A stretch of 14,811 nucleotides of DNA from assembly GCA_012730105.1 (NCBI GenBank), contig JAAYBJ010000299.1:1-14811 (forward strand), written 5' to 3'. Under the pieces are notes generated by a model. That model did no database searches, was not told where the DNA came from, and saw only the letters and a program-made list of their open reading frames with translations. Source of the DNA: Candidatus Hydrogenedentota bacterium. Its GTDB lineage: Bacteria > Hydrogenedentota > Hydrogenedentia > Hydrogenedentales > CAITNO01. The position numbers were made by a program, and so were the translations under genes. Each line of letters begins with the position of its first letter. The stretch's first letter is position 1. Below, one piece after another: positions 3,954 to 14,811 of this stretch.

Positions 3954-5564
3954 ATGACATTCATACAGACAGTAGCAGGCGTGATGTTGAATTCAAAACG
4001 ACAGCCGTGGAACCGCGCCTGCAGCCTTGTTCTGCTTTGCGGTCTGCTTGTCATTTTCACGCTGGAGGCCGCCGCAGAGCTGACCCAGGTGTCTGTTGGT
4101 GGCGAGCTCCGTATACGCGGCCGCTGGTATATAAACGCATGGGAAGATGAGAAGCCCCTTGTGAACCGGATCAACAGCAGTTATCTCCCCTGGCGTCCCA
4201 TCGGATCTACGGGCACCAAGTCTTTGTTTAAATGGGACAGCGATGGAAAAGATTGGACCCGCTATGAATCCTCCGTCAAACTTAATTTCAAAGCGGATTT
4301 TACAAACAATGTGACAGCCTTCGTTGAACTTTATGACTGGTATGTTTTCGGCGAAAGTTTTCGGTCGAACTATCTCACGGGCGCGGATAATCGTGGTGAA
4401 GGTTTAGACACCGTGCAGTTGAACCAGGCATATATCGAAATGCGCCAGGTTTTTGACACACCGTTGACGCTGCGCGTAGGCCGCCAGGAACTTCTTTTCG
4501 GCAACGGCTGGCTGCTGTCAAACATGCTGACCCCTTCCCAGTATATAACCCATGACGCCATACGGCTCACCTATGCCGGAACGGACTTCACCGTGGACGC
4601 TTTTGCGGCGAAACACAACGCCAGTATGCAGCTGCTTGATGAACAGATCAACCTGTACGGCATTTACGGGACCTATAAGGGATTCCAGCCCTTGACCATG
4701 TCGGCGTATTGGATGTATGTGCATGATAACACGGACATTGAAACAGGCGAAGCCACATCTCTCGGCAGTTGGGTGAATTCGCTGCTCGGGAGGCATTTCG
4801 GTTCCACCAACCTGCATACGCTGGGCATACATTTCTTCGGCAAGCACGCCGGTTTTGACTACAGTCTGCAAACGGCCTACCAGTTTGGCGATGCGGAACA
4901 TATTGGCGCGATGTTTGGCAATGGCGGCATCTTCAACGGCGATACGGATGCCAAGTATGACAACTGGGGCATGGAAGCCATACTGGGCTACACGTTTGAA
5001 GATGTGAAATGGAAGCCGCGGCCTTACATCATGGGCGTTTATTTCCAAGGACAGGATAACCGCGACATCAGTTTCTGGGAATGGATGAATCCCTTCTACG
5101 AACCTGAAGCGAGCGTGTCTTTTAACCGTTTGTTCAGCGATAAGAATTATTCGTGGACCATCAATGACAACAGTTGGCTGTCTAATTTCATTCAGCTCAG
5201 CGCTGGTTTGGAACTCCAGCTGACCGAAAAAATACGCCTTTGTATGCGTGTGTCTAAAAACTGGGTGGATGAGCCCTTCAACCCGCCCAAGTCCATCAAA
5301 TTGGGCGGACGCCGCATTTATATCGCGCCGAACCTGAGTTTCTGGACCGATGAAGGCAGTGATGACCTGGGATGGGAAATCGCCAGTTATATTCTTTACA
5401 ACTATTCTGCAGACTTGTCCTTCGGGTTGTTCGGCAATGTGCTCTTCCCTGACGATGGTCTTACGGATGGCAGTTTTATGCATTTCTACGGCACTCAGTT
5501 CAGCGGCGGCACGGGTGACGACACTTCCGGGTATTTGTTCTGGATGGCTACCCTTAAGTTCTAA
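3954..5564 (+). CDS. Outer-membrane beta-barrel protein (porin/alginate-export-like), signal peptide, C-terminal Phe
   Basis: N-terminal signal peptide (KRQPWNRACSLVLLCGLLVIFTLEAAAE) and aromatic/Gly-rich alternating pattern. Terminal ...WMATLKF with C-terminal F is typical of BAM-dependent barrels. GGAGG RBS is 8 nt upstream. A strong terminator follows. Confidence 0.7.
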   Translation: MTFIQTVAGVMLNSKRQPWNRACSLVLLCGLLVIFTLEAAAELTQVSVGGELRIRGRWYINAWEDEKPLVNRINSSYLPWRPIGSTGTKSLFKWDSDGKDWTRYESSVKLNFKADFTNNVTAFVELYDWYVFGESFRSNYLTGADNRGEGLDTVQLNQAYIEMRQVFDTPLTLRVGRQELLFGNGWLLSNMLTPSQYITHDAIRLTYAGTDFTVDAFAAKHNASMQLLDEQINLYGIYGTYKGFQPLTMSAYWMYVHDNTDIETGEATSLGSWVNSLLGRHFGSTNLHTLGIHFFGKHAGFDYSLQTAYQFGDAEHIGAMFGNGGIFNGDTDAKYDNWGMEAILGYTFEDVKWKPRPYIMGVYFQGQDNRDISFWEWMNPFYEPEASVSFNRLFSDKNYSWTINDNSWLSNFIQLSAGLELQLTEKIRLCMRVSKNWVDEPFNPPKSIKLGGRRIYIAPNLSFWTDEGSDDLGWEIASYILYNYSADLSFGLFGNVLFPDDGLTDGSFMHFYGTQFSGGTGDDTSGYLFWMATLKF

Positions 5565-5625
5565 ATATAGGATTCCGCCCCCCGTTTCCGAGTTTTGCTG
5601 AGGGAACGGGCGGGAAATGAGTACG

Positions 5626-5664
5626 GGCCGCCGCCATTCCCCAAGGGGAGGGCGGCGGCCTTTT
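5626..5664 (+). terminator. Rho-independent terminator: GGCCGCCGCC-loop-GGCGGCGGCC followed by TTTT
   Basis: Perfect 10-bp GC stem with a loop that itself contains CCCCaaGGGG, then a T-run at 5661-5664, just downstream of the OMP stop. Confidence 0.8.
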
Positions 5665-5874
5665 CACACGGACTTGCACAACGACTGGATAGTATCGCGC
5701 AAAAGGATGGTTGTGCCCTTCGCGTCCTGAGCCCGTTTGGCCAAATTTTGCGGATTAGAAATAGGCCGGGAAAAACGGGCATAATATAGTAAGGAATTGG
5801 AGTTTTGGTGGTTCCGCTGAAACAAGCAGGCGGAATCGCTGTACTCTCAGAACCATCTTAGGAGGAATAGAAGT

Positions 5875-6243
5875 ATGGCAACCGTGTATCATGAGCCTGT
5901 TGAGGAACTTTCGCCGCAGGCAAGAAACATGCATCGGGCGTTAACAAGCCTGATTGAAGAATTGGAAGCGGTGGACTGGTATAACCAGCGGGCTGACGTT
6001 ACTGATGATGCTGCATTGAAGGCAATTCTTGAACACAATCGTGATGAAGAGATTGAGCATGCGGCTATGACCTTGGAATGGATCCGCCGCCAGATGCCCA
6101 AATTTGACCAGGAACTGAAGACGTACCTGTTTACCGCGGGTGACATAACCACGATAGAAGATGCCGGTGATGAGGTCGGGGGTGGAACTGCCCCCGCGAG
6201 ATCGGCCGGGCTCGGTATCGGTTCACTTAAGAAAGGACGTTAA
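5875..6243 (+). CDS. Encapsulated ferritin-like protein (EncFtn/Flp) cargo with C-terminal encapsulin targeting peptide
   Basis: Core LEHNRDEEIEHAAMTLEW matches the conserved EncFtn di-iron motif (EHNRDEE.EHAAM). The C-terminal tail ...GGGTAPARSAGLGIGSLKKGR fits the cargo-loading peptide consensus (GSLxIGSLK) after a Gly-rich linker. AGGAGG RBS precedes the start. The shell gene begins 2 nt after the stop. Confidence 0.85.
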   Translation: MATVYHEPVEELSPQARNMHRALTSLIEELEAVDWYNQRADVTDDAALKAILEHNRDEEIEHAAMTLEWIRRQMPKFDQELKTYLFTAGDITTIEDAGDEVGGGTAPARSAGLGIGSLKKGR

Positions 6244-6245
6244 CC

Positions 6246-7052
6246 ATGACAGACGCATTAAAACGTTTTTCCGCCCCTATTTCTTCGGCTGCTTGGAATG
6301 CTATTGACGATGCCGCTGCGGCGGTATTACGCGCCCGGTTGTCTGCAAGATCCGTGGTGGATTTTGTAGGTCCGCTTGGTTGGGAAACGGACGCCATAGG
6401 GTTGGGGCGTGCCAAACTGGTGGATAAGGGTGCTGTCGGCACGCCTGCATGGGGTGCCCGTCAATCTTTGCCGCTCATAGAGGTCCGTATCCCCTTTATT
6501 CTTAAATTAAGTGAACTGGAAAATATCGAGCGCGGCGCCAAAGACGTGGATCTGGCGCCACTGGAAGATGCGGCTAAGGCCATGGCGGCTTTTGAAGAAA
6601 AATCTCTGTATTCCGGGCTGTCTAAAGCCGGTATTACGGGCATTCTCGAGGCTGCCGATGCCAAGCCGATTACCGTTGCGGCCCAGCCGGAAGCGGTGGT
6701 GGATGCCGTGGCCGGGGCGATTGCCCAGTTGCGCGAAAATGATATTGACGGCCCTTATGCGTTTGTCGGTGGCACCAAGGCCTTTGGGGTCTTGAGCCGT
6801 ATTGTGCCGGGCGGTGGCACGGTGAATCGCGTGGTTGAGCAAATGACCGGTATGGCGCCCGCGTGGACTCCTGCCGTGGCGGGCGCGGCGATTGTTTCGG
6901 CGCGCGGTGGCGATTATGAGTTGTCCGTTGGCCAGGATATGGCGGTCGGATACGCGAAGCATGATGCCGAGAAAATCGAACTGTACCTTGTAGAAACTTT
7001 CACCTTCCGGGTCATTGAACCGCGGGCGGCGGTGGAAATAAAATTCAAGTAG
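6246..7052 (+). CDS. Family 1 encapsulin shell protein (linocin M18-like, HK97 fold)
   Basis: 268 aa. [103 protein letters not shown] is collinear with T. maritima encapsulin ([81 protein letters not shown]...LLKF). Confidence 0.9.
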
Positions 7053-7120
7053 TTCTGGCGGTCGCCGGAGGGTCTTCCGGGCGGCACTGGATAATTTATA
7101 AACGGAAAGGATTTCCTTCT

Positions 7121-8491
7121 ATGCGCGAGTATGCCATTTTGCTGGATGCCAAAAAAATGCCGGATGCCTGGTATAACATATTGCCTGACATGCCCTCCCC
7201 GTCCGCACCGGTGTTGCATCCGGCAACGCAACAGCCGGTGTCTCCCGAAGACCTGGCGGCCATTTTCCCCATGGGTCTGATTGAACAGGAGATGAGCCCC
7301 AACCCGGAAATTTCCATACCGGGTGAGGTGATGGACCGTTACCTGATGTACCGGCCCACCCCGTTGCGCCGCGCGTACCGCCTGGAAGAAGAACTGAAGA
7401 CACCGGCCAAGATTTACTACAAGAACGAGAGCGTCACGCCTTCGGGCAGCCATAAGATCAATACCTCGATTGCGCAGGCCTATTACAACATGGTTGAAGG
7501 TGTGCATTCGCTCAGTACGGAAACCGGCGCCGGACAGTGGGGTACCGCCTTGTCCATTGCCTGTTCCATGTACAACATGCAGTGCAAGGTTTACATGGTC
7601 CGCGTCAGTTTCGAGCAGAAGCCTTACCGCAAGGGCTTCATGGAAGCCTTCGGCGCCACCGTAATAGCCAGTCCCAGTGATACCACGGAAGTCGGGCGTA
7701 AAATCCGCGAGGACAATCCGGGAACCACCGGCAGCCTTGGCATGGCCATTTCCGAGGCCGTTGAGGTCGCGGTGACCAGCGGCGGCAAGATCAAGTACAG
7801 CCTGGGCAGCGTGTTGAACCACGTCTGCATGCACCAGACCATCATTGGTGAGGAAGCCAAACTTCAGATGGACAGTGTGGGCGACTACCCGGACATCGTG
7901 ATCGGCTGCTGCGGCGGCGGGTCCAATTTCGCCGGTATTTCGTTCCCCTTCGTGAAGGACAAACTGAAGAAAGGGCTTAAGACCGAATTCATCGCCGTGG
8001 AACCGGCCGCGTGCCCGACCCTGACACGTGGACCCTATGCGTATGATTTCGGTGACACCGGGAAGCTGACGCCTTTGATGAAGCAGTATACCTTGGGCCA
8101 CAATTTCGTGCCGCCGGGCATTCACGCGGGTGGGCTGCGGTATCACGGCGTCGCACAGACGGTTGCCCACCTGAAGAAGGACGGGGTTATTGACGCGCGT
8201 GCCTTGTATCAGAATCCCTGCTTCAAAGCAAGCCTGTTGTTCGCCAAGTGTGAAGGCATTCTTCCCGCGCCGGAATCGGGACACGCGATATGCGCCGCAG
8301 TAGATGAGGCGGTTCGCTGCCGGGAAGCGGGAGAAAGCAAGACGATTCTCTTCAATCTGAGTGGTCACGGCCACTTCGACGTCGCGGCGTATGACGCTTA
8401 TCTGCGTGGTGACCTGCAGGACTACGATCTGGATGAGGAAATCCTTGAAAAAGGAAGACAAAGCATCCCGGACGTCAAAGAACCGGCATAA
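7121..8491 (+). CDS. trpB2: TrpB2-type tryptophan synthase beta-subunit paralog (PLP-dependent)
   Basis: 456 aa. N-terminal [12 protein letters not shown] and PLP-lysine motif [14 protein letters not shown], plus Gly-rich [10 protein letters not shown], are characteristic of the long TrpB2 clade. AAAGGA RBS is about 10 nt upstream. Confidence 0.88.
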
Positions 8492-12665: not shown

Positions 12666-12944
12666 AATCTTTCTCCTGGTTGAAAACAAGCCTTTATATA
12701 CTTGACCGGATTTCGGGAAGGAAAGATTCAAGAAATGAGCCATAAAGGTATTCAGGGATAGTCCTTCATGAGGCCCCGCAGTTTTCCCGTAAAGGAAGAA
12801 AATGTAGACGCGGCATTCTTGGCGCGTTGGAAGTGGCTGGAAGCCGTTTCTACATTCATTGAGTACAACATTTTTATTTACGGTGAGTTAGATAAATTAT
12901 CGAGGATGCCGCGGACAGGCACCAGCGCGTTATGGCGGGTCGTC

Positions 12945-12970
12945 TGGTTCCCAAATTCCTATTTGGGAAC
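12945..12970. repeat. Perfect hairpin GGTTCCCAAAT-tcct-ATTTGGGAACC (copy 1 of a GTTCCCAA palindrome family)
   Basis: Seen in sequence: 11-bp stem, 4-nt loop. Confidence 0.7.
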
Positions 12971-13032
12971 CGCCTTTGCACACGGTCAATACACATAGCA
13001 TTCCGGGAACCGTGGAGAAGGGACGAAAGAGA

Positions 13033-13082
13033 GAAATGGAATTTCAAGAGAGAGTGGGTTCCCAAATAGGAATTTGGGAACC
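13033..13082. repeat. 21-nt direct repeat GAAATGGAATTTCAAGAGAGA (second copy 13313-13333) immediately followed by hairpin GGTTCCCAAAT-agga-ATTTGGGAACC (inverted orientation of copy 1)
   Basis: Seen in sequence. The loop agga is the reverse complement of tcct in copy 1. The direct repeat recurs 280 bp downstream as GAAATAGAATTTCAAGAGAGA. Confidence 0.7.
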
Positions 13083-13210
13083 AGGGAAAACGAAAAACGT
13101 CGCGAAAGAAGTTTCGTGCAAAATTGCAGATGCTGGCGCAGTGGCTGCGGTACAATTGCATATTCCGCGCGCGAGCGCCTGATTTGGTCTATGCGAGCGG
13201 GTTGCTTTAC

Positions 13211-13241
13211 GCTCGTTCCCAAGTTGCACTTGGGAACGAGC
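13211..13241. repeat. Related perfect palindrome GCTCGTTCCCAAGT-tgca-ACTTGGGAACGAGC
   Basis: Seen in sequence: 14-bp stem sharing the GTTCCCAA/TTGGGAAC core with the other two hairpins. Confidence 0.65.
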
Positions 13242-13312
13242 TTGCCCGCGAAGTTTTACTTCGCAACCCTGGTAAAGCGCCGGAATACACCGGTCGGACC
13301 GTTGCGAAAAGG

Positions 13313-13399
13313 GAAATAGAATTTCAAGAGAGAAAAAACTCATAATTCGTAATCGAGTTTCTATTGCGTTTTTTGTCGATTACGAGTCACGAGCACGAG
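13313..13399. repeat. Second copy of 21-nt direct repeat (13313-13333) followed by dyad ATTCGTAATCGAG/TCGATTACGAG and the TCGATTACGAG-TCACGAGCACGAG motif shared with the glyA-upstream palindrome
   Basis: Seen in sequence: 11+13 nt identical to positions 359-369 and 376-388, with a 6-nt indel between the two blocks. Confidence 0.6.
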
Positions 13400-13491
13400 T
13401 CGCGAAGGCGAAATACTAGGGGCGTCGGGTTGCGGGCAACCATGCGTTGCTTATGTAACGCCTCCTCGGAATCCCAAGGTGGGCAACCCCG

Positions 13492-13830
13492 CTATTCCTC
13501 CGTCGGGGGCATGCGGAGTTGTTTTATTCTGCTGCGCAACTGCTTGCTGCGCAGGCGCTTGGCCTTTGCCGAACGGCTCGGCCGCGTGGGGACGCGTGGT
13601 TCCGGGACCTGCCGCAAAGCTTCCAACCGCCGCAACAGTTCTTCGTAGGCCGCTTCTTTATTCTTTAACTGTGACCGTGAACCGGTCCGCACCACCACAA
13701 TGCCGGTAGGCAAATGCCGCAGACGCACGGCCGAATCGGTCGTATTCTTCTTCTGTCCCCCGGGCCCATGGCTGCGGAAGAAGGTGTATTCCAAGTCTTG
13801 TTCTTGAGGTATGTTTGTGTCGGCACCCAT
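13492..13830 (-). CDS. arfB: Alternative ribosome-rescue factor ArfB (YaeJ-like peptidyl-tRNA hydrolase, GGQ motif)
   Basis: FFRSHGPGGQKKNTTDSAVRLRH GGQ domain, followed by a basic C-terminal tail RVPTRPSRSAKAKRLRSKQLRSRIKQLR matching the ArfB consensus tail (...RPTRPTRASKERRL..K..). Confidence 0.8.
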   Translation of the reverse strand: MGADTNIPQEQDLEYTFFRSHGPGGQKKNTTDSAVRLRHLPTGIVVVRTGSRSQLKNKEAAYEELLRRLEALRQVPEPRVPTRPSRSAKAKRLRSKQLRSRIKQLRMPPTEE

Positions 13831-13944
13831 TAAAGCGTCCCGTTTCCTGGCGGTGGCTGGCTGAAATCGACAGAGATCAATGAATCAAATAAAAAGGCTC
13901 CGGAACTCACCCAATCATGTCCACGGGATGGTAGGTTGCTGCAA

Positions 13945-14154
13945 TTACACCGCACGCAAGACAGCCTCCAGCGGCTTTTCCTTGTTGAATTGGCTTACAC
14001 CCAGAATGCTGAATCCCAGGATGTGGCCATCCTTGTCCACACGTTCCATAACGGCATCGTGCTCGGTTTCGGTCATATATCCGGCGCCATCACGAAAGAT
14101 CACCTCAAGATAATCCGCCTCGGCATCATACCAGACTTTTACGGTATCGGCCAT
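13945..14154 (-). CDS. DUF2283 family small protein (putative antitoxin partner)
   Basis: 69 aa with VWYDAEADYLEVIF start typical of DUF2283/YuzE-like proteins. Overlaps the upstream gene by 16 nt. Confidence 0.6.
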   Translation of the reverse strand: MADTVKVWYDAEADYLEVIFRDGAGYMTETEHDAVMERVDKDGHILGFSILGVSQFNKEKPLEAVLRAV

Positions 14155-14450
14155 AACGTTTCTCCCTGTTTTATTTTGTCCGTCAAATACGCCGTAACGA
14201 CAAATGTGTCGGTTCCCTCAAATTTGGTCACCACACATAACCATTTGTCGCCCACCCTTGTGGCACGGTAATAGCGGTAAAAGAGAGCCACCCGACTGTC
14301 CGTTCGGGACCGTTGCACAACTTCCGGTGCCTCAAGTACGACACCTATCTCCGCTTCCAGATCAACCATTTCCGGATGCAGGCGTATATGCTCCAGCCTT
14401 TCGGCTGTAAAACGAACATTATTTCCGAAACAATCCCTGAAGAAATTCAT
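14139..14450 (-). CDS. DUF4258 family protein (putative toxin partner)
   Basis: About 103 aa from ATG 14450 (MNFFRDCFGNNVRFT...). The ORF track starts at 14480 with TTG; the start is uncertain. The conserved RL.HI motif region (AERLEHIRLHPEM) resembles DUF4258. 16-nt overlap with the downstream DUF2283 gene. Confidence 0.55.
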   Translation of the reverse strand: MNFFRDCFGNNVRFTAERLEHIRLHPEMVDLEAEIGVVLEAPEVVQRSRTDSRVALFYRYYRATRVGDKWLCVVTKFEGTDTFVVTAYLTDKIKQGETLWPIP

Positions 14451-14811
14451 CGTGTTCTGAGCCAATAATGCCTGTAACAATGCTTACCGTCATTGTATCA
14501 CGTTGTAAATCATGGTCGCCAATGAAGGCGCGAAAAAATAAATTGGGAACCAAGGGCAAGTACCTTGATTTTCACGGATCAAGCGGGAGTAGAAAGATAA
14601 GGGTGCCTGCCGCCATTACCCATTTCGCCACCTAAATTGAGAGCACGAAACCGGTTGCTGTACCATAAAGACTCGGGTGTCGGTAACTAACGTGGGCGTT
14701 GCCCACAACCCAGAAGATCCTCCGTTGAGATGAATTGATGCGCCGCCATGTCCCAGAATATGGTTTTTCCACAAAAACCCGACAAAAAGGACAGACGGCG
14801 CATGAATATGA

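Follow-up and report, generated by a model that had tools for sequence, protein, structure and literature searches.

Encapsulated ferritin (EncFtn, or Flp) is the second most common cargo of Family 1 encapsulins (PMC8346489), and in the Enc:EncFtn system of H. ochraceum it is held as four decamers inside a T=1 shell that has a dynamic five-fold pore (PMC8791618; Ross et al., 2022). Here we describe a comparable pair of genes, encFtn for the cargo and enc for the shell, in a 14,811-nucleotide (nt) stretch of DNA, referred to as a whole as the window, from an uncultured Candidatus Hydrogenedentes bacterium (contig JAAYBJ010000299.1). We hold with high confidence that the two genes form a 'classical' (Family 1) encapsulin operon, of the type whose cargo is EncFtn (Flp), and we found no sequence evidence to the contrary. 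The locus is an ordinary instance of a well-known type of iron-storage nanocompartment, found in a little-studied phylum and carrying a wrong public annotation. The two genes and the parts of the cargo protein are:

5875–6243, + strand: encFtn, encapsulated ferritin cargo, 122 amino acids (aa), ATG start, TAA stop at 6241–6243
EncFtn residues 5–95: ferritin-like core
EncFtn residues 96–112: variable linker rich in Gly, Ala and Pro
EncFtn residues 113–122: targeting peptide LGIGSLKKGR
6246–7052, + strand: enc, Family 1 encapsulin shell with the HK97 fold, 268 aa, ATG at 6246

The window pair shares its two-gene architecture with the H. ochraceum system (structures 7odw, 7oe2 and 5n5f). Its cargo aligns with that of H. 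ochraceum over residues 5–120 (E 3e-35 for 7oe2 and 3e-32 for 5n5f), and its shell matches 7odw at E 1.2e-56, with 40% identity, a TM-score of 0.93 and a root-mean-square deviation (rmsd) of 1.9 Å. The two differ in phylum, H. ochraceum belonging to the Myxococcota and the window pair to the Hydrogenedentes. The targeting peptides also differ at both ends: the window peptide (GLGIGSLKK against SLGIGSLRQ in H. ochraceum) opens with Gly rather than Ser and runs out in KKGR, and its Lys-Gly codons appear to double as the ribosome-binding site of the shell gene.

The best matches among solved structures are 33bf and 9rzu for the cargo (E 9.4e-36) and 9ry4 for the shell (E 4.3e-57). These most likely represent Rhodospirillum rubrum Rru_A0973/Rru_A0974, as the residues published as Glu32, Tyr39, Glu62 and His65 carry the same numbers in the chain. 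The ferroxidase residues of this cargo are identical to those of the window once an offset of +3 is applied, and its C-terminus reads SLGIGSLK. Its linker is longer, giving a protein of 140 aa against 122 aa in the window, and the R. rubrum-type shell, at 280 aa against 268 aa, carries small insertions.

More distant is the encapsulin of T. maritima ('maritimacin'; 3dkt, 7kq5), also a Family 1, T=1 system with a Flp/EncFtn cargo and also from an anaerobe. The window shell matches it at E 3e-51 and TM 0.88 with about 35% identity; unlike the window system, it comes from a thermophile and binds flavin. The iron-mineralizing Family 1 systems of M. xanthus (EncA with EncB, C and D) and Quasibacillus thermotolerans (IMEF) likewise load cargo through a C-terminal targeting peptide, but with their larger T=3 and T=4 shells they are far more distant (shell E 1e-8 to 1e-6, TM 0.71–0.78). 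The window cargo falls below the cut-off of the M. xanthus-type cargo family (NCBIfam EncB_fam, 74.8 bits against 90).

The encFtn cargo and the enc shell

The original prediction had placed the two open reading frames (ORFs) at 5875–6243 and 6246–7052, with lengths of 122 and 268 aa and a 2-nt gap, and these values are exact in the sequence. It had recognized the first ORF as an EncFtn from a core string and a C-terminal peptide, and both are indeed present in the cargo, EHNRDEEIEHAAM at residues 53–65 and GLGIGSLKKGR at residues 112–122. The EncFtn identity was borne out by two family models, as the cargo exceeds the cut-offs of both Pfam PF22277 (EncFtn-like; E 1.1e-42, 144.2 bits, cut-off 27) and NCBIfam TIGR04535 (ferrit_encaps, encapsulin-associated ferritin-like protein; 158.9 bits, cut-off 125). 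Among solved structures, the R. rubrum EncFtn 5da5 was also matched, at E 2e-31.

To place the ferroxidase center we relied on the best structural hit, whose chain numbering in the alignment equals that of the published R. rubrum residues and is offset by +3 from the window cargo. In R. rubrum EncFtn, the center is made up of Glu32, Glu62 and His65, with Tyr39 nearby, and an HxxxE pair has been described (PMC11202242). Given the offset, E29, E59, H62 and Y36 of the window cargo are therefore taken as the counterparts of Glu32, Glu62, His65 and Tyr39, and all four are invariant in an alignment of eight sequences, namely the window cargo and seven orthologs from related contigs. The HxxxE pair corresponds to H54/E58, within the conserved core. 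Across the alignment the core is near-invariant, the linker (residues 96–112) is variable, and the C-terminal LGIGSL(K/R)KG is again invariant. Residues E28, E31 and W35, which are also invariant, are the counterparts of R. rubrum Glu31, Glu34 and Trp38, which likewise have functional roles.

The C-terminal peptide aligns with the SLGIGSLK and SLGIGSLRQ peptides of solved encapsulated EncFtns, in line with the cargo-loading role proposed for it originally. At the level of sequence, the family matches and the alignment show that the product of 5875–6243 is an encapsulated ferritin whose di-iron ferroxidase center is intact and which ends in a targeting peptide. Because about half of the aligned residues, by a by-eye estimate, are identical to those of crystallized decameric EncFtns, the cargo is predicted to assemble into annular decamers of D5 symmetry that would act as a ferroxidase and depend on the shell for iron storage. 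A six-frame search of the window for further targeting-peptide motifs returned nothing beyond the C-terminus of EncFtn itself and an LGIGSL read antisense to the shell gene (6648–6665, − strand). The latter lies inside a spurious antisense ORF (6507–6962) and was set aside as a coincidence, since it is internal rather than C-terminal and is conserved in no relative.

The downstream gene had been predicted to encode a linocin-type shell, and family searches agreed strongly: PF04454 (Linocin_M18) matched with E 1.5e-75 and 254.1 bits (cut-off 24.3) over model positions 3–253 of 253, and the NCBIfam equivalog NF041155 (encap_f1) matched with 258.4 bits (cut-off 100) over model positions 1–260 of 261. 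The identifications of both the cargo and the shell gene are far beyond chance. The Pfam scan found no fused domain in the shell beyond PF04454. We modeled the shell monomer with AlphaFold2 from a 49-sequence alignment, which gave a mean predicted local distance difference test score (pLDDT) of 95 and a predicted TM-score (pTM) of 0.89. The only dip in pLDDT (to 86) fell on residues 181–190, a block that by alignment position corresponds approximately to the five-fold pore loop of the H. ochraceum shell, residues 180–196 (PMC8791618). The model and the Foldseek comparison support an HK97 fold, which comprises an A-domain, a P-domain and an E-loop.

Sequence and model were also used to weigh the assembly class of the shell, since the T number of an encapsulin depends on the arrangement of its E-loop (PMC11202242) and is not readable with certainty from sequence. 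M. xanthus EncA can assemble with either T=1 or T=3, according to the titles of its Protein Data Bank (PDB) entries. As an alternative to T=1 we considered assembly at T=3 or T=4, which would give a compartment of 32–42 nm with much greater iron capacity. The comparisons all point the other way. Beyond the closest solved T=1 shells, those of K. pneumoniae, T. maritima, M. tuberculosis and B. linens match the window shell at E 1e-51 to 1e-44, whereas T=3 and T=4 shells reach only E 1e-12 to 1e-5, with M. xanthus EncA and Q. thermotolerans at 1e-8 to 1e-5. Against the PDB, Foldseek placed T=1 encapsulins first (TM 0.91–0.94, rmsd 1.8–2.3 Å over 262–267 columns), with T=3 and T=4 protomers superposing at an rmsd of 4–8 Å. 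The length of 268 aa is also typical of T=1 shells. We therefore regard a larger shell as very improbable. By sequence and modeled fold together, the product of the downstream gene is a shell protein with the HK97 fold and belongs to the T=1 class. In line with the T=1 particle originally proposed, the shell is predicted to self-assemble into a 60-mer of about 24 nm, the closest matches in sequence and in fold all being T=1.

The HK97 fold also invites a different explanation, in which the 268-aa protein is the capsid protein of a remnant or active phage, or a secreted bacteriocin, whose ferritin-like neighbor has no relation to it. The GenBank name of the shell, 'bacteriocin family protein', and a weak PHROGs match to the major head protein family phrog_264 (E 1.2e-4, 22 bits) would fit such an origin. 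The same protein scores 258 bits against the Family 1 encapsulin equivalog, however, and we rejected the 22-bit match as the expected distant kinship among HK97 folds rather than the mark of a capsid gene. No portal, protease or terminase family was present among the window ORFs scanned, nor was any phage family in the precomputed Pfam lists of the syntenic contigs. The original 'linocin M18', from Brevibacterium linens, is likewise an encapsulin shell, with a solved structure (7bcv). That the two genes are unrelated is opposed by the targeting peptide on the cargo and by its linkage to the shell in 78 of the 80 distant genomes listed. A phage or bacteriocin origin is thus effectively refuted.

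As an EncFtn encapsulin, the pair would work as has been worked out for the characterized systems of R. rubrum, H. ochraceum and T. maritima (PMC8791618, PMC11202242, PMC8346489). Annular D5 decamers of EncFtn would oxidize Fe(II) and be unable to hold the mineral on their own. During assembly, the linker and the LGIGSLK peptide would tether the decamers to the hydrophobic cleft of the P-domain on the luminal face of the shell, and 60 shell subunits would close into a particle of about 24 nm with some four to five decamers inside. Fe(II) would then enter through the shell pores, be oxidized and be laid down as ferric mineral in the lumen, which would store iron and at the same time limit Fenton chemistry. 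Both genes would be transcribed from a promoter of its own at about 5755–5785, with a terminator shielding it from the porin-like gene upstream.

This interpretation has its limits. Assembly, T number, cargo loading and ferroxidase activity are drawn from homology to the characterized systems, and the promoter and operon boundaries rest on consensus and conservation. The AlphaFold2 network was trained on the solved T=1 structures, so the conformation of its monomer is no independent evidence. Finally, the source organism, judging by the GenBank locus tag, lives in anaerobic digester-type samples, where the physiological oxidant may be O2 or H2O2.

Conservation and public annotation of the pair

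Loci from the Hydrogenedentes clade were gathered by look-ups of the exact proteins. The exact cargo and shell sequences occur on more than 20 metagenomic contigs in the same gene order, and seven more divergent Hydrogenedentes contigs keep the encFtn–enc pair with a shell identity of 66–89%. These seven relatives share a longer gene order as well: PP2C, Alginate_exp, EncFtn, shell, a TrpB-like pyridoxal phosphate (PLP) enzyme and, on the opposite strand, an RmlD-like reductase. Outside this clade, shell identity does not exceed 50%.

A genome-contig scan with the single shell protein as query gave no confirmed relative. An alignment-based search of genome contigs yielded a distant set of at least 80 loci with shell identities of 38–47%, the window's own clade not being among them. 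The distant relatives listed span Planctomycetota, Acidobacteriota, Myxococcota, Proteobacteria and other phyla. When these were searched with a hidden Markov model built from the Hydrogenedentes EncFtn alignment, an EncFtn-like ORF was found to adjoin the shell in 78 of the 80 listed, and in 77 it lay upstream on the same strand. Spacing between cargo and shell was mostly −7 to +40 nt. All but four of the 78 listed cargo ORFs carry the motif [LM]x[IVL]Gx[LFMI] within a few residues of the C-terminus (74/78), which lends further weight to the cargo-loading peptide, and 34 of the 78 have LGIGSL exactly.

We also considered the TrpB-like and Alginate_exp genes as components of the system and rejected both: among the 80 distant relatives listed, neither was found within 1.5 kb of the shell. 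Their constant presence beside the pair in Hydrogenedentes is therefore taken as lineage-specific synteny rather than membership in the system.

Sequences identical to both proteins are present in GenBank, and the expectation that such operons are often left annotated as a bacteriocin and a hypothetical protein is literally true here. The cargo, NLV46617.1, is entered as 'MAG: hypothetical protein GXY07_19210' and the shell, NLV46618.1, as 'MAG: bacteriocin family protein'. At JGI the shell is named 'linocin/CFP29 family' and the cargo 'ferritin-like', and the NCBI pipeline already calls the shell of a Hydrogenedentales relative (P0009) a 'family 1 encapsulin nanocompartment shell protein'. 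The practical value of these results is thus a correction of annotation, of NLV46617.1 to encapsulated ferritin cargo and of NLV46618.1 to Family 1 encapsulin shell. A literature search for encapsulins and Hydrogenedentes together found no paper, and the name Hydrogenedentes was not found in the text and supplements of the 2021 encapsulin census (PMC8346489), the supplement files being possibly incomplete. For encapsulins themselves the locus raises no new question and would not surprise a specialist. It does document a conserved iron-sequestering nanocompartment in a clade of Candidatus Hydrogenedentes known only from metagenomes, and bears on iron handling and oxidative stress there.

Probable operon boundaries, translation signals and the upstream leader

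The features considered around and between the two genes are:

5626–5664, + strand: intrinsic-terminator-like hairpin, GGCCGCCGCC...GGCGGCGGCC followed by TTTT, which would close the Alginate_exp gene and mark the 5' boundary of the encapsulin unit
5731–5738 and 5773–5780, + strand: exact inverted repeat, GCCCGTTT / AAACGGGC, arms 34 nt apart
5755–5785, + strand: promoter-like element, TTAGAA-N19-CATAAT, about 89 nt before the encFtn ATG
5861–5866, + strand: Shine-Dalgarno sequence AGGAGG of encFtn, 8 nt before the ATG, as read from the sequence
6231–6236, + strand: Shine-Dalgarno sequence AAAGGA of the shell gene, coinciding with cargo codons Lys120-Gly121
about 7060–7085, + strand: GC-rich hairpin just past the shell stop; minimum free energy of the window hairpin −21.4 kcal/mol

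On the 5' side, the hairpin at 5626–5660 has 16-nt arms that are 88% complementary and a 3-nt loop. It is kept in six related loci with compensatory changes (for example, stems of GCCGTTGC/GCAACGGC in relative L012 and GCCGCATCTG/CAGGTGCGGC in L010) and is followed by a T-rich run. This hairpin is best read as the intrinsic terminator of Alginate_exp, which would insulate the encapsulin pair. It is the second of two hairpins after the Alginate_exp stop; the first, at 5578–5613 (CCCCCCGTTTCC...GGGAACGGGCGG), is shared by L014, whereas in L012 it has diverged. Its heptamers, CCCGTTT (5581–5587) and AACGGGC (5605–5611), recur in the inverted repeat 150 nt downstream.

Between the terminator and encFtn lies the promoter-like element, for which a consensus promoter scan lists TAGAAA-18-CATAAT. 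The pattern TTAGA(A/C)-N19-CATAAT is found 88–90 nt before the ATG in the window, L016 and L017, and the element together with its distance to the ATG is kept in the window, L014, L012, L016 and L017. By position, the CATAAT hexamer is placed near-identically in L014, L012 and L007. L007 keeps the AAACGGGCATAAT part of the element, and L010 has TTAGAA with AAATAT. Within the whole window the pattern has a single match, with 0.02 expected. From this consensus and conservation we infer that 5755–5785 is likely the promoter of the encFtn–enc operon. Strings resembling GGAGG or AGGAG also occupy the place of the encFtn Shine-Dalgarno sequence in the relatives.

The original prediction had pointed to an 8-bp inverted repeat in this leader as possibly regulatory. 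The repeat does exist and is exact over 8 bp; the regulatory role did not hold up. It would require that the repeat act as the operator of an iron- or peroxide-sensing repressor, or as an RNA hairpin controlling the operon, and some features are suggestive in this respect: the right arm abuts the putative −10 hexamer, the heptamers of the 5578–5613 hairpin repeat its arms, and folding of the entire leader is more favorable than that of shuffled sequences (z = −3.75). Most of that z-score, however, comes from the two terminator-region hairpins upstream. Moreover, when the 210-nt leader (5665–5874) is shuffled, 9% of the shuffles hold one or more exact 8-bp inverted repeats whose arms are no more than 60 nt apart, so the repeat is not statistically remarkable. 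In L014, the closest relative, whose shell is 89% identical, the left arm reads GCTCGTGT, with two uncompensated changes opposite an unchanged right arm, and L012, L016, L017 and L010 lack the left arm altogether. Conservation of the right arm is explained by its place in the promoter spacer beside the −10 hexamer. The left arm, being upstream of the −35, would not be transcribed if the conserved promoter is correct, and a spacing of 34 nt is atypical for a dimeric operator. RNAalifold predicted no pairs across seven orthologous leaders, giving no conserved structure in the 5' untranslated region, and an Rfam scan of the whole window at gathering thresholds returned nothing. We rejected the repeat as a regulator on its chance expectation and its lack of conservation; it is probably fortuitous, and a regulatory function for it seems highly unlikely. 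The idea of a riboswitch or thermometer in the leader was likewise dropped because RNAalifold gave no pairs.

The two genes are separated by only 2 nt (CC) between the cargo TAA and the shell ATG, and in L013 they overlap as ATGA. The AAAGGA of the shell gene is invariant at this site in all eight loci (the window, L007, L010, L012, L013, L014, L016 and L017). Its position within cargo codons, together with the 2-nt gap, suggests that translation of the shell is probably coupled to that of the cargo. The invariance of KKG/RKG at the cargo end may accordingly reflect dual coding for a ribosome-binding site as much as binding to the shell.

On the 3' side, the hairpin past the shell stop has equivalents of different sequence in L014, L012, L016, L017 and L010 but none in L007 or L013, so that six of eight loci have one when the window is included. 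The hairpin has no clear U-tract, and in the terminator scan it appears only as a 5-bp version (7076–7091). It may be a weak terminator or a stabilizer of the mRNA 3' end, and it is likely the 3' boundary of the unit; given the missing U-tract, termination before the adjacent TrpB-like gene is likely rather than certain. The same lack of a U-tract would allow read-through into that gene. If the encapsulin pair were co-transcribed with it, the compartment would be linked to an amino-acid/sulfur-type PLP reaction, and the role of the nanocompartment would not be iron storage alone. We give this extension only a slight chance.

Neighboring genes

Around the encapsulin pair, the window contains genes for serine hydroxymethyltransferase (SHMT), a CoA-binding protein, PP2C, Alginate_exp, the TrpB-like enzyme, the RmlD-like reductase, PI-PLC and GH123; no phage morphogenesis genes are among these neighbors in the window ORFs scanned. 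The TrpB-like PLP enzyme (7121–8491, + strand) belongs to the TrpB2 class (NF009057, 702 bits). Its gene begins 68 nt past the shell in every Hydrogenedentes relative, and the protein has no C-terminus resembling a targeting peptide. On the other side, the Alginate_exp protein (3954–5564, + strand, 536 aa) is an AlgE-like outer-membrane beta-barrel with no NCBIfam match, and its gene adjoins the encapsulin pair throughout the clade, with the terminator in between.

Farther from the pair, the SHMT (603–2129, + strand) is 508 aa long, about 90 aa longer than typical SHMTs, and this length is kept in the relatives (507–511 aa). Its Pfam match falls in two stretches, which suggests an insertion or an N-terminal extension. 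Toward the far end of the window, 12744–13491 holds a single called gene of 76 aa without a family hit. The adjoining segment, 13492–14480 (− strand), contains a small RF-1-domain protein of 112 aa that resembles peptidyl-tRNA hydrolases of the ArfB class. Two short ORFs come after it, and the matching contig L002 has one of them annotated as DUF2283.

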